A DNA stretch of 64,000 bases from Candidatus Omnitrophota bacterium (GCA_043798795.1 JAZDOJ010000052.1:30940-94939), one strand, 5' to 3'; positions 24,135 through 34,283 are shown, counted from the stretch's first letter. The notes: generated by a model not told the origin, from the sequence alone. A program made the numbers and translations.

Positions 24135-24341
24135 ATGATTACAGAAATCGGTATTGTGGCCGGCGATATATGGCATTTTTTGGACCAGCACGGAGAGGTT
24201 AGCATCTCGTTTCTCGTGAAAGGCATCGATAAGCCGCGCGATAATGTGTTGATGAGCCTGGGGTGGTTGGCGCGAGAGGGGCACGCGATCGTCCGGCAAG
24301 TTGAAGGGGATTATAAAATTAGCTTAAGGAAAGAGGATTAA
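24135..24341 (+). CDS. small winged-helix DNA-binding protein
   Basis: 68 aa; AGGAGAGAGAGG RBS; resembles small wHTH regulators. Confidence 0.5.
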   Translation: MITEIGIVAGDIWHFLDQHGEVSISFLVKGIDKPRDNVLMSLGWLAREGHAIVRQVEGDYKISLRKED

Positions 24342-24349
24342 TCCTTGCG

Positions 24350-24757
24350 ATGAATAAAAGAGGCGTGTTGTTGCTTATCGTGATTACGACTATAGTGGTA
24401 GCTATTGTTTTGAGTAATGTCATTTTAAATATAATGCTTAGTCAAGGCCGCCTGACCACCTATGAGCTCCACCGCATTCAGGCAAAATACGCGTGCATGG
24501 CAGGCATCAATTGGGGTTACCAAAATTTAATAACAGAGGATTGGGCAAGACCCTCAGTCGGAAATTGTGACAGAAGATCCCTGACAGATTCTGATGCTAC
24601 CTTTCCTTCCTCTATCAATAGCATTGATGTTTATATAGCCTCTCCTGGTGCCGCCTGTTTTAATGCCCTTGGTCAGCAAGTGACCGAGCCCTGCGAACCC
24701 CCTGATGGAGCTGAAGTTTGTATCAGCTCTGTGGCAGACTTCGTTTACACGCCTTAA
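24350..24757 (+). CDS. PilX/GspK-like minor (pseudo)pilin-like protein
   Basis: N-terminus KRG|VLLLIVITTIVVAIVL plus AKYACMAGINWG resembles the PilX_N motif (RG-hydrophobic helix ... AxxAAxAG); Cys-rich C-terminal region. Confidence 0.45.
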   Translation: MNKRGVLLLIVITTIVVAIVLSNVILNIMLSQGRLTTYELHRIQAKYACMAGINWGYQNLITEDWARPSVGNCDRRSLTDSDATFPSSINSIDVYIASPGAACFNALGQQVTEPCEPPDGAEVCISSVADFVYTP

Positions 24758-24774
24758 AATCTTCCATTAAGAAT

Positions 24775-24880
24775 ATTATAATCTAAGTAAGACTATTATA
24801 AGATTATATGATCTAGCATGCATCATATTTCTTCTCAGCTAAGTAAAATAAGTAAGTCTGAGTAAGTCTATATAAGAAAA
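24775..24880. promoter_or_regulatory. AT-rich region with direct repeats of TAAGTAAG(A/T)CT (about 4 copies) upstream of the HTH-pilMN operon
   Basis: seen in sequence; candidate operator or promoter. Confidence 0.4.
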
Positions 24881-24983
24881 CACTTGACAATATAAAAGTA
24901 TTATGTTCTAATTAAGCCTAATGTATTTTGTTATTATTTATAGGCATTTTGTTTCATGTGGTTGTGTTTAGGAGTATATTCGC

Positions 24984-25184
24984 ATGACGAGATTAATGGA
25001 TGTTGATGAGTTAGCGGATTATCTGAGATTGAAAAAACAGACCATTTACAATTGGCTGCATCAGGCAAAGATCTCAGGGTTTAAGGTCGGCGGTGTATGG
25101 AGATTCGATCGTAAAGACGTGGAGGATTGGCTAAAAAGCCGAAGGCGGCTCTCAAAAGATTCAAGATTCGGAGAAAAACAATGA
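24984..25184 (+). CDS. excisionase-family (HTH_17/MerR-like) DNA-binding protein, translationally coupled to pilM-N
   Basis: LMDVDELADYL..KQTIYNWL..G..VGGVWRFDRKDVEDWL matches the Xis-family HTH; stop overlaps the pilMN start (ATGA). Confidence 0.65.
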   Translation: MTRLMDVDELADYLRLKKQTIYNWLHQAKISGFKVGGVWRFDRKDVEDWLKSRRRLSKDSRFGEKQ

Positions 25185-32354: not shown

Positions 32355-32483
32355 GGATGAGTTAAATTTATTTGACTTGATTCTTTTTTGTGGTACCCTA
32401 AAGAAAACAAGGCGGTGAGAGGGCAAAATTTTTAGCACTCACCCTTATAGCGTTTATAAGGATAAATATAAGAGGAGGAAGAA

Positions 32484-32876
32484 ATGAAAAGAGGCTTTAC
32501 ACTGTTGGAACTGATTATTGTTGTTATCATCGTTGGTATATTGGCGACTTTAGGGTTTGTCCAATATACATCCATGCTTGAAAAAGGCCGTAAAGCTGAA
32601 GCCAGAAGCATCTTGGGAACATTGCGTCAGTTAGAAGCGATAAGGTATCAAGAGACAGGGGCCTATGGAAATCTTGCGGACCTAAGCACAGGTGTGCCAG
32701 ATGCTTCTTGCGCGGCCACGCACTATTTTTCATACTCCTGCTCTAATTCTACGGGTACCTGCACCGGAACCAGATGTACTTCTGGAGGTAAGGCCCCTGA
32801 TGCTGGCGCAGGATTTAACTATACGGTTTCCTTAGATCTCAACGGTACTTTTAGCGGAACAGGCGAGTGGCAATAG
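32484..32876 (+). CDS. type IV major (pseudo)pilin (PilA/GspG-like)
   Basis: MKRG|FTLLELIIVVIIVGILA class III signal; AGGAGG RBS. Confidence 0.8.
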   Translation: MKRGFTLLELIIVVIIVGILATLGFVQYTSMLEKGRKAEARSILGTLRQLEAIRYQETGAYGNLADLSTGVPDASCAATHYFSYSCSNSTGTCTGTRCTSGGKAPDAGAGFNYTVSLDLNGTFSGTGEWQ

Positions 32877-32902
32877 GCGTTTTCTCGCACCAGAGAAAAA
32901 CG

Positions 32903-33316
32903 ATGAAGAAAACAGGCGTGACTTTAATCGAATTAGTCATCACTGTTATGCTCATCAGTATTTTAGGTGCCCTAGGGTTTATTCAGTACGGGAATTACCG
33001 AGAAGAGGCCCTCGGCAAGGAAGCCCGGGCCAATTTGAGGTTGATCGTAGCGGCACAAAGGATTTATAAGATAAAGACAAGCGCCTACTTTCCCGTTGCT
33101 GGCGGTACGGAAAGTGACGTAGCATCCATTAATGATAACCTCAAAGTGATGTTGTCTACGGTAGGAGGCCCTAGCCGGGTATGGGATTATCTGGTAGATT
33201 CTTCAGCAGGAAACACCTGCGTTCAGGCCTCAAGAGTTGGTGGGCCTGCAAAAACCTGGAGCTTCCGTAATAACGATCCGGACGGCGACCCTGACCAAGA
33301 TGGTACGTGCCCTTAA
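32903..33316 (+). CDS. minor pseudopilin (GspH-like)
   Basis: MKKTG|VTLIELVITVMLISILGA prepilin motif. Confidence 0.7.
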   Translation: MKKTGVTLIELVITVMLISILGALGFIQYGNYREEALGKEARANLRLIVAAQRIYKIKTSAYFPVAGGTESDVASINDNLKVMLSTVGGPSRVWDYLVDSSAGNTCVQASRVGGPAKTWSFRNNDPDGDPDQDGTCP

Positions 33317-33680
33317 AGGAAGAAGGGGCTTCACCTTAATGGAGGCTTTGGTTTCTACGGTGCTCATTTCCCTGGTTTTGGTGGGGTTAGGGAGTCTTTT
33401 TCTGGGGGGAAAAAAATGGATGGGGCACCGTCGTTATCAGATGACGGCGGCCCAGGTAGCCAAGGTTTTTCTAGACCCTTTACAGATGGATGTACGACAG
33501 GATAATTGGGGATCGAACTGCTTAAGCGGTAACGGCTCGAATTGCTCATCCTACGGCACGCATCCTCCTATCAATGGCATAACGTATTCAGCTAATTACA
33601 CCATTAGCCCACCGCCGGTTGATGGAACGAATTTGCGTCGCGTCCAGTTAAATGTCAGTTGGAATGAACCCTCCCCTTAG
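33300..33680 (+). CDS. minor pseudopilin (GspI-like)
   Basis: ALKGRRG|FTLMEALVSTVLISLVLVGL prepilin motif; start at internal ATG. Confidence 0.65.
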   Translation: MVRALKGRRGFTLMEALVSTVLISLVLVGLGSLFLGGKKWMGHRRYQMTAAQVAKVFLDPLQMDVRQDNWGSNCLSGNGSNCSSYGTHPPINGITYSANYTISPPPVDGTNLRRVQLNVSWNEPSP

Positions 33681-34283
33681 ATGCCCACACGTAAAAGAAG
33701 TTTCGGGGTCACCCTCATTGAATTAACCATTGCCGTCGTTTTGATTTCATTTATTGTCTTAGGGATTGCCAATATCGACACCTTTTATCATTTCCAAGTC
33801 TTGGATGCAGACCGTCGCATCAAAATCCAATTTGAGAACTCCATTGCCTTAGAGCACATGACATACCAGGTGGGAAGGGGTATCGGAGATGCTGCCAATG
33901 CTGTCAATAAACCTGTGGAGTTGCTTCTACCCTCGGGCCCCAACTACCGTGGTGTGAGGGTCTGGGTCGATTTGAACCAAAACGGAAAGCGGGATGATTA
34001 TCCTGAGGACCGTGAAATCGGTTATCTCTTTCAGAATACCTCGAAGGCGATCGAGTACTATAACCCCTGCCGGGGCCCGAGTTGCAATTGGGCAGGAAGC
34101 CTGTTGAATGATACCATAGCTGGTCAGATTGCCGAATGCACCTTTAGTTGGTCTGAGGGCACTGGAAATTTCGTTGATGTCAGCATCACGTCGCGCTTCA
34201 ATGCGTCCATGGCCCCTTCTGTGGATAATCCCGAAATGAATATGTCCGCCCGAATTCAAATGCCCTCCGTATCTACGCATTAA
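33681..34283 (+). CDS. minor pseudopilin (GspJ/PilW-like)
   Basis: MPTRKRSFG|VTLIELTIAVVLISFIVLGIA prepilin motif; 200 aa. Confidence 0.7.
   Translation: MPTRKRSFGVTLIELTIAVVLISFIVLGIANIDTFYHFQVLDADRRIKIQFENSIALEHMTYQVGRGIGDAANAVNKPVELLLPSGPNYRGVRVWVDLNQNGKRDDYPEDREIGYLFQNTSKAIEYYNPCRGPSCNWAGSLLNDTIAGQIAECTFSWSEGTGNFVDVSITSRFNASMAPSVDNPEMNMSARIQMPSVSTH

Follow-up and report, generated by a model that had tools for sequence, protein, structure and literature searches.

A probable type IVa pilus locus with a fused PilM-PilN protein in Candidatus Omnitrophota

Type IVa pili (T4aP) and type II secretion systems (T2SS) are built from homologous parts, so which of the two does a compact cluster of such parts encode? 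The question is raised by a 64,000-nucleotide stretch of DNA from a Candidatus Omnitrophota bacterium (GCA_043798795.1 JAZDOJ010000052.1:30940-94939), which we call the window. Positions 24135-34283 hold 13 open reading frames (ORFs), all on the + strand, that we call cluster A. ORF calls and translations confirm this inventory and its coordinates. The components were assigned with Pfam and NCBIfam profile models. The original prediction for this DNA, made from the sequence alone, saw a complete, co-oriented type IV filament machine in which each part has a Gsp counterpart, and the profile models bear out both points. It went on to call the machine a T2SS-like apparatus, with parts that add up to a K-L-M-C-D-E-F-G-H-I-J complement. 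The complement stands as an inventory. It is not a sign of a T2SS, since the T2SS derives from the T4aP and this core is common to both (PMC10191384).

It is therefore the features in which the two systems differ that have to be considered. The ATPase and its MshEN motif, the platform, the PilM fold, the PilX_N family, the pilin and the presence of pilT in relatives all point to a T4aP, and the secretin leans the same way, so the call of a T2SS-like apparatus fails. We argue that cluster A is very likely a vertically inherited T4aP assembly locus of the Omnitrophota with a fused PilM-PilN protein, and not a T2SS. This reading is based on the genes present and their domain architectures, on phylogenetic and fold affinity, and on synteny.

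The core of the machine

Profile and pairwise scores were unable to separate PilB from GspE or PilC from GspF, so trees were built instead. The ATPase scores 596.8 bits with the GspE model TIGR02533 (cutoff 630.25), and its score with the PilB model TIGR02538 (Table 1) is also short of the cutoff of 675.65. The ATPase tree is a neighbour-joining tree of 328 core columns and 47 taxa, rooted on PilT, with 300 bootstraps. The GspE side was represented by E. coli K-12 GspE, EtpE from pO157, GspE from Providencia and Ralstonia and the T2SS ATPase of Bradyrhizobium. The other labelled references were E. coli K-12 HofB, A. baumannii PilB and PilB and PilT from Acetoanaerobium. The Omnitrophota sequences are monophyletic in this tree. 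In 94% of bootstraps their sister group is made up of PilB-type proteins only, namely A. baumannii PilB and ATPases encoded in pilB-pilT-pilC loci. The Omnitrophota and PilB-type ATPases together exclude the four canonical GspE in 87%, while a grouping of Omnitrophota with GspE appears in 5%. The platform protein was placed in a neighbour-joining tree of 40 taxa and 400 columns, in which nestedness was tested by bootstrap. It nests among the PilC of pilB-pilT-pilC loci in 79% of bootstraps and goes with GspF in 21%; its NCBIfam scores are 338 bits for GspF and 318 for PilC, both below cutoff. These trees give moderate support for placing the ATPase with the T4aP PilB clade and not with GspE, and the platform would likewise be of the PilC type, also with moderate support.

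The N-terminus of the ATPase offers another line of reasoning. The protein aligns end to end with Geobacter and Myxococcus PilB (PDB 5zfr, 5tsg and 3jc8), whereas EpsE covers residues 176-569 only. When the N-terminal 175 aa are compared with structures in the PDB they score 128 bits with Thermus PilF, 81 with Geobacter PilB, 80 with Myxococcus PilB and 61 with the N-terminal domain of V. cholerae MshE, and no GspE chain is matched at E<=0.01. This region contains a tandem 24-residue MshEN motif (residues 8-31 and 37-60). The NCBIfam model for this cyclic di-GMP (c-di-GMP) motif scores 66 bits against a cutoff of 38. All six of the Omnitrophota orthologues checked have at least one copy of the motif, and four of the six have both. 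Four GspE references (E. coli GspE, EtpE, Ralstonia and Bradyrhizobium) lack the motif. It must be noted that it is also absent from E. coli HofB and A. baumannii PilB. The neighbours of the ATPase gene can be considered as well. In 59 of the 63 closest loci outside the Omnitrophota, where the ATPases are 43-47% identical, pilT adjoins the ATPase gene; 58 have the order pilB-pilT, usually followed by pilC.

The PilM-PilN fusion had been equated with GspL. PulL has been described as a PilM-PilN fusion, and the T2SS as a T4aP derivative without PilT (PMC10191384). The equation holds for topology. An AlphaFold model of the fusion (51 sequences, AlphaFold2 (AF2) mean predicted local distance difference test score (pLDDT) 81.7) has an actin-like domain, a VDLL helix, a transmembrane helix, a coiled coil and a ferredoxin-like domain. 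The VDLL motif resembles the PilN N-terminus, and the model would put the PilM domain in the cytoplasm and the PilN domain in the periplasm. The equation does not hold for the fold. When the model is compared with the PDB using Foldseek, the top 10 matches are all PilM (P. aeruginosa, Myxococcus and Thermus) with E-values of 3e-19 to 4e-17, over about 355 columns at 16-19% identity. The cytoplasmic domains of EpsL/GspL first appear at rank 18 (E 5e-10, 10-11% identity) and are 230-aa targets. The PilM_2, PilN and PilO Pfam matches are all above cutoff, and neither the fusion nor PilO matched the E. coli and Ralstonia GspL and GspM proteins by BLAST. The predicted structure is that of a straightforward PilM joined to a PilN, GspL-like in topology only.

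The fusion has at least 120 clusters of homologues with lengths of 503-531 aa, and the named ones are mostly from Omnitrophota. It must therefore be real and phylum-wide. Since the ATPase and platform trees place the machine with the T4aP, the Omnitrophota fusion looks like an event independent of GspL. No mention of a PilM-PilN fusion of this kind was found in the literature searched.

The protein in the PilP position is harder to name. The copy in the window has no significant Pfam match of its own. The T2SSB model (PF16537) is matched by 11 of 12 aligned sequences, made up of the window copy (E 0.24) and its orthologues, with a best E-value of 1.7e-6; PilP is matched by 1 of the 12. The family has two conserved motifs, RDPF and QGI(I/V)WG...PQAII. 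Alignment to E. coli HofP and GspC with hhalign was not significant. This 181-aa protein is presumably a homology region (HR)-type protein in the PilP position that links the inner-membrane complex to the secretin.

The secretin leans towards the PilQ type, but its sequence is not decisive. It scores 209 bits with PilQ, 208 with GspD TIGR02517 (cutoff 351) and 135 with MshL (cutoff 250), and the PilQ score is also below its cutoff. In the PDB it matches PilQ of V. cholerae and Neisseria best (126-127 bits), against 114 for the best GspD. It aligns over its full length with E. coli HofQ, but with E. coli GspD only from about residue 265 (N3) on. Pfam finds no AMIN domain in it.

The prepilins of cluster A have type IVa features: a short leader, Gly-1, Phe or Val at +1, Glu+5, and a PilX-type minor pilin in the family. 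The 130-aa major pilin candidate is the most conserved of the four and is duplicated in two related loci (L003 and L007). It is identical to NCBI MFH0827308.1, from an Omnitrophota metagenome-assembled genome (MAG). It scores 31.7 bits with the GspG model, whose cutoff is 88.85. The best fold match to its AF2 model (pLDDT 89.7) is Neisseria PilE, and this match is weak (E 6e-3, template modelling (TM) score 0.54); no pseudopilin is among the top 50 structure matches. Minor pilin 2 is a paralogue (37% identity) of an orphan pilin elsewhere in the window, and minor pilin 4 has a weak NCBIfam match to a prepilin peptidase-dependent protein. The 135-aa PilX-like protein scores 18 bits with the GspK model against a cutoff of 130. 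There is an ORF at its position in seven relatives' loci. When these seven orthologues were scanned along with the window protein and its paralogue in a second pilus cluster of the window (cluster B, see below), PilX_N (PF14341) was matched by four of the nine with a best E-value of 3e-7 and T2SSK by none; the window protein itself has no PilX_N match.

We propose that the machine would work as follows. The hexameric PilB-type ATPase would dock on the cytoplasmic PilM domain of the fusion and on the PilC platform, and it probably responds to c-di-GMP through its N-terminal MshEN domain. PilB would drive processed pilins out of the inner membrane. The filament would be primed by the three minor pilins and the PilX-type subunit and be built mainly of the 130-aa pilin. 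The fused PilN, together with PilO and the HR-domain PilP-like protein, would align the inner-membrane complex with the PilQ-type secretin, where the fibre would exit. Processing by PilD and retraction by PilT would be supplied from elsewhere in the genome. Two small helix-turn-helix (HTH) proteins encoded in the cluster probably regulate the operon. The machine probably serves to attach the cell to surfaces or to host cells, in line with what has been proposed for Omnitrophota.

Pilus, secretion system or island

Several points weigh against a T4aP. The NCBIfam scores for PilB and GspE, PilQ and GspD, and PilC and GspF are close, and all are below the family cutoffs. The original prediction had proposed to run T2SS and T4P models on each ORF, and these three pairs do remain ambiguous, although GspG and GspK are far below cutoff. 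The 398-aa ATPase core scores better pairwise with V. cholerae EpsE (424 bits) than with Geobacter PilB (405). The PilP-position protein is closer to the GspB C-terminal domain than to Pfam PilP. The trees are neighbour-joining trees with few references; the T2SS references are all from Proteobacteria, MshE and ComGA were left out, and the T4aP references were picked by their similarity to the query. Finally, Pfam scans of the large + strand ORFs over the 64 kb did not find a PilT-type ATPase or an A24 prepilin peptidase, as had been predicted for the window. The same scans found housekeeping genes, an orphan prepilin and the second pilus cluster.

We argue that the missing genes are the expected situation. 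The genes of a T4aP system are typically spread over more than one locus (PMC6668835). A PilT of 352-356 aa is encoded among the pilin genes of the orthologous cluster in two other lineages of the Omnitrophota (L009, 14288-15346; L092, 10001-11071). The orthology of these clusters is based on HTH_17, the PilM-PilN fusion, an ATPase with 60% identity, and the Memo/AMMECR1 gene and tRNA-Ala downstream. Of the closest homologues of PilT, many are labelled as proteins of Omnitrophota. Since T4aP are usually multi-locus systems, and pilT is either inside orthologous clusters or scattered, the absence of pilT and pilD here need not count against a T4aP. By analogy with these relatives, we infer that PilT and PilD are encoded elsewhere in this genome. 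An ATPase that goes with PilB, at moderate support, and a pilT in the relatives' orthologous clusters are what was found on two of the points that the original prediction had named as telling an ordinary T4P from a T2SS-like system; it had asked for firm clustering.

The whereabouts of pilus genes in related DNA can be described further. In the closer relatives of the window pilT is gone from the locus, and there is none within 10 kb of the cluster. Another locus, L093, was reached through a PilT homologue, and its Omnitrophota origin is not established. Its pilT (10001-11065) lies inside an ilv/leu operon, and 4 kb away a Peptidase_A24 prepilin peptidase gene (14672-15457) lies between the genes for shikimate dehydrogenase and chorismate synthase. 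The orphan prepilin of the window lies in an arginine operon, between the genes for ornithine carbamoyltransferase and argininosuccinate synthase. The pilT in the ilv operon echoes this arrangement: in both cases pilus genes are scattered through housekeeping operons.

One can imagine a scenario that keeps the T4aP ancestry but changes the function. An Omnitrophota T4aP with an independently fused, GspL-like PilM-PilN, and with pilT dropped from the locus in the window's sub-lineage, would be a partial replay of the transition from T4aP to T2SS. The main task of such a machine might be secretion or the making of short fibres, for instance to export effectors for host attack, with cluster B building the true pilus or sharing the motor. 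We consider this unlikely.

A T2SS-like secretion system proper is a still more doubtful proposition. Here a short pseudopilus of four prepilins and a K-like subunit would push folded substrates through the secretin, with PilM-PilN acting as GspL and no retraction ATPase. This would account for the GspL topology of the fusion and for the lack of pilT both in the window and within 10 kb of the cluster in its closest relatives. It would also fit an ATPase core that scores as well against EpsE as against PilB, an HR-domain protein that matches the T2SSB domain, and the compact gene order. Machines of the T4aP clade can secrete, since the Cytophaga system that acts as a 'T2SS' falls in that clade (PMC6668835). 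Omnitrophota loci for giant proteins and carbohydrate-active enzymes (CAZymes) are often flanked by T2SS/T4P genes (bioRxiv 10.64898/2026.06.07.730766). However, both trees favour a T4aP, and the N-terminus of the ATPase is of the PilB/MshEN type without a GspE match. The cytoplasmic domain of the fusion is a full-size PilM and not the reduced domain of GspL. The equivalog cutoffs for GspG, GspK, GspD, GspE and GspF are all missed, and the secretin has a single N domain against three in GspD. The cluster has no GspC-type PDZ domain and no GspN, GspS or GspA. In L009 and L092, moreover, pilT is embedded in the orthologous clusters.

The preferred T4aP reading has another competitor within the pilus family. 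A mannose-sensitive haemagglutinin (MSHA)-type system would be a single-locus, c-di-GMP-activated adhesive T4a-like pilus without a PilT of its own. The gene order of cluster A resembles what we take to be that of the mshIJKL-(MN)-EGF and mshBACD operons. The double MshEN motif in the ATPase, the lack of pilT in the window and the 135 bits of the secretin with the MshL model would fit too. So would the tetratricopeptide repeat (TPR) protein that is syntenic with the cluster, as MshN is a TPR protein (PMC6668835). But MshM is mandatory in such systems (PMC6668835), and Pfam found no AAA/ExeA-like ORF in or beside the cluster. The N-terminus of the ATPase scores higher with PilB/PilF (80-128 bits) than with V. 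cholerae MshE (61), the secretin scores 209 bits with PilQ against 135 with MshL (cutoff 250), and pilT is present inside orthologous clusters. The MSHA question was judged on the absence of MshM, the N-domain scores and the presence of pilT, with a tree that has no MshE. We regard an MSHA-type pilus as disfavoured and very improbable.

The last alternative is that cluster A is a horizontally acquired island inserted at the tRNA-Ala gene, for which its position directly upstream of that gene and the excisionase-like HTH_17 gene inside it could be cited, but the same cluster, flanks and tRNA-Ala(CGC) occur in at least eight Omnitrophota lineages with ATPases that are 54-75% identical, the GC content of the cluster (0.42-0.50) is within the range of the window, and Pfam scans of the cluster and neighbouring ORFs found no integrase or transposase, so synteny effectively refutes the island and leaves it next to no probability.

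Cluster A is instead an ancestral, vertically inherited locus of the Omnitrophota. A search with the window ATPase retrieves Candidatus Omnitrophota MAGs at the identities just given. When all cluster proteins are searched with tblastn, the same order recurs across several Omnitrophota lineages: TPR-(ExbBD)-wHTH-PilX-HTH_17-PilMN-PilO-PilP-secretin-ATPase-platform-pilins-tRNA-Ala-(rSAM)-Memo/AMMECR1, where wHTH is the winged-helix protein and rSAM is radical SAM. The tRNA-Ala(CGC) gene follows the pilin genes in eight related loci (L001, L002, L006-L009, L014 and L092). This recurring order, the shared tRNA-Ala and the unremarkable GC content are the reasons for considering the cluster inherited. 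The original prediction was correct that the cluster is directly upstream of tRNA-Ala, but this adjacency is ancestral synteny and not an integration site.

Flanks, regulation and a second cluster

Two small HTH genes are embedded in cluster A. The DUF2582 winged-helix protein has orthologues with 62-69% identity in the same position in eight loci, and it is presumed to be a local regulator. The HTH_17 protein has orthologues with 67-76% identity directly 5' of PilM-PilN in about ten loci and in L092. Its stop codon overlaps the likely start of pilMN as ATGA (25181-25184). From this overlap the HTH_17 gene is predicted to be translationally coupled to pilMN, in a tightly packed operon. The true starts of four genes are internal ATGs: those of PilM-PilN (likely), the secretin and pilins 2 and 3, as given in Table 1.

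Two intergenic regions are worth describing. The 489-nt gap 5' of the winged-helix gene contains two adjacent strong hairpins, with an RNA minimum free energy of -49.6 kcal/mol (z = -6.1 vs shuffles). They have no Rfam match, no second copy in the window and no verbatim copy in related loci, and they may serve as a pair of terminators, as an operator or as a regulatory RNA. The AT-rich region before HTH_17 and pilMN has tandem AGTAAGTCT repeats, TAAGA(A/C)TATTATAA repeats and a TTGACA box. Its sequence makes it a candidate operator and promoter for the embedded HTH proteins. The tRNA was the sole match in the Rfam scan, and promoter and terminator scans were at chance level.

The genes on either side differ in how closely they keep to the cluster. 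An orthologue of the 857-aa TPR protein is upstream of the pilus cluster in 10 relatives' loci. The ExbB, ExbD and 211-aa genes lie between the TPR and winged-helix genes in L006, L008, L009, L014 and L017. They are missing from L001, L002, L004 and L007, where the TPR gene directly abuts the winged-helix gene. The ExbB/ExbD block is a variable neighbour and probably not part of the pilus machine. The TPR protein may be an accessory or pilotin-like partner, though its membership in the cluster is uncertain. On the other side, a radical SAM gene and a Memo-AMMECR1 fusion gene are directly 3' of tRNA-Ala. Synteny with the pilus cluster holds for Memo/AMMECR1 in most related loci and for the radical SAM gene in some of them.

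Table 1. Coordinates of cluster A, its flanking features and other pilus genes of the window
Feature	Position	Strand	Evidence or description
Orphan prepilin	4246-4647		
TPR protein, 857 aa	19341..21914	+	Many TPR Pfam matches, including a YfiO/BamD-like family
ExbB, ExbD and 211-aa protein (TonB/TolA-like?)	21957..23645	+	Pfam MotA_ExbB, ExbD
Adjacent hairpins	23911-24018		
Small winged-helix protein, DUF2582	24135..24341	+	PF10771, 47.8 bits
PilX-type minor pilin-like protein, 135 aa	24350..24757	+	Membrane anchor, hydrophobic N-terminus, without Glu5
AT-rich intergenic region	24758-24983		
HTH_17 (MerR/excisionase-type) protein	24984..25184	+	PF12728, 61.8 bits
PilM-PilN fusion	25181..26746	+	PilM_2 1.7e-16, PilN 4e-6, TIGR01175 pilM 85 bits
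PilO	26754..27260	+	PF04350, 25.3 bits, above cutoff; orthologues in syntenic loci
PilP-position protein, 181 aa	27265..27810	+	Signal/anchor, RDPF motif, C-terminal HR-like beta domain
Secretin	27812..29401	+	STN (N0), one Secretin_N (N1-type) and Secretin domain (Pfam)
PilB-type extension ATPase, 573 aa	29404..31125	+	T2SSE and N-terminal MshEN; TIGR02538 PilB 617.8 bits
PilC-type inner-membrane platform protein	31125..32354	+	Two T2SSF domains (Pfam)
Major pilin candidate, 130 aa	32484..32876	+	N_methyl; leader MKRG/FTLLE (cleavage at the slash), Phe1 and Glu5
Minor pilin 2	32903..33316	+	N_methyl, Gly-1 and Glu5
Minor pilin 3	33300..33680	+	N_methyl 1e-5; orthologues in syntenic loci
Minor pilin 4, 200 aa	33681..34283	+	N_methyl at threshold score; orthologues in syntenic loci
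tRNA-Ala(CGC)	34375..34450	+	ARAGORN and Rfam
Radical SAM gene and Memo-AMMECR1 fusion gene	34473-37155		
Cluster B	43247-52495		

About 9 kb downstream of cluster A lies another T4aP-like cluster, cluster B. It encodes a pilin, a 673-aa protein with a transmembrane segment and TPRs whose gene directly follows that of the pilin, and four minor-pilin-like ORFs, one of which is 290 aa long and has a PilX-like N-terminus without Glu5. It also has separate PilM, PilN (with an INLLP motif), PilO and PilP genes and a 592-aa secretin, and it has no ATPase or platform gene. It is equally conserved, with the same flanks in longer related metagenome contigs (MiaB upstream; DUF2344, RNase G and Obg downstream). 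In L107 and L108 (1-5000) cluster A-type platform, pilin and PilM-PilN-like genes are immediately 5' of the cluster B homologue, so that the two clusters are contiguous there. Cluster B either shares the motor of cluster A or has a motor elsewhere. The regions examined contain two conserved PilMNOPQ sets but a single pair of motor and platform, which raises the question of motor sharing.

Comparison with known systems

As a T4aP locus, cluster A is largely ordinary and adds little, since T4aP are already known across the Omnitrophota. TXSScan on 421 Omnitrophota genomes found T4aP in 135 of 141 Velamenicoccia, and the majority of genomes in the other classes have them too (Seymour et al. 2023, PMC10066038). 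V. archaeovorus expresses a T4aP, and roles in attachment and symbiosis have been proposed (PMC10066038). These are the same kind of system in the same phylum. As far as we found, that study does not give gene-level anatomy such as the PilM-PilN fusion, the DUF2582 and HTH_17 genes or two clusters per genome. F-type ATPase genes are not beside cluster A in the window. What is new is modest: the fusion of PilM to PilN throughout the phylum, the pair of HTH genes inside the cluster and a further T4aP cluster without a motor. A fusion that keeps the full PilM fold would have arisen in parallel to GspL and independently of it, and it would lend itself to structural work on the coupling between the cytoplasmic ring and the periplasmic alignment complex. 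The tandem MshEN motif is intact in the PilB, which predicts that piliation is gated by c-di-GMP in these ultra-small bacteria.

With the T2SS of E. coli, Ralstonia and Vibrio (Gsp/Eps), cluster A shares the homologous core, the fused L-type topology and a locus without PilT, and its ATPase core is 47-52% identical to the GspE references. It differs in the clade of its ATPase and platform, an N-terminus in which the GspE-type N1 domain is unmatched, and a cytoplasmic domain of PilM size. Its secretin has a single N domain instead of three, the PDZ domain of GspC is missing, and there is a small PilX-type protein in place of a 330-aa GspK. Seven Gsp models gave a score, and all of them stayed below cutoff.

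Akkermansia and the Omnitrophota are both in or near the Planctomycetes-Verrucomicrobia-Chlamydiae (PVC) group. The families of the Akkermansia Amuc_1098-1102 cluster (NCBIfam NF045709 and NF042912) match cluster A weakly. The PilM-like Amuc_1101 family, with 608 positions, scores 53 against a cutoff of 650 with the fusion, and the Amuc_1098 family scores 96 against a cutoff of 750 with the secretin.

Cluster A can also be compared with the T4aP of Myxococcus xanthus, Geobacter and Thermus. Unlike these, cluster A has PilM and PilN in one polypeptide, a secretin without AMIN and no pilT in the locus. Its protein in the PilP position cannot be recognised as a lipoprotein and is similar to the C-terminal domain of GspB. 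It has two small HTH genes instead of a PilSR two-component system, and no PilY1-like adhesin. Like these systems it has all the core parts, a PilB with an MshEN-type N-terminus, the PilM fold, a secretin that leans towards PilQ, a pilin with a type IVa leader and minor pilins of the PilX_N type. The T4aP of Myxococcus and Geobacter also have most of their components in one large locus, as in cluster A.

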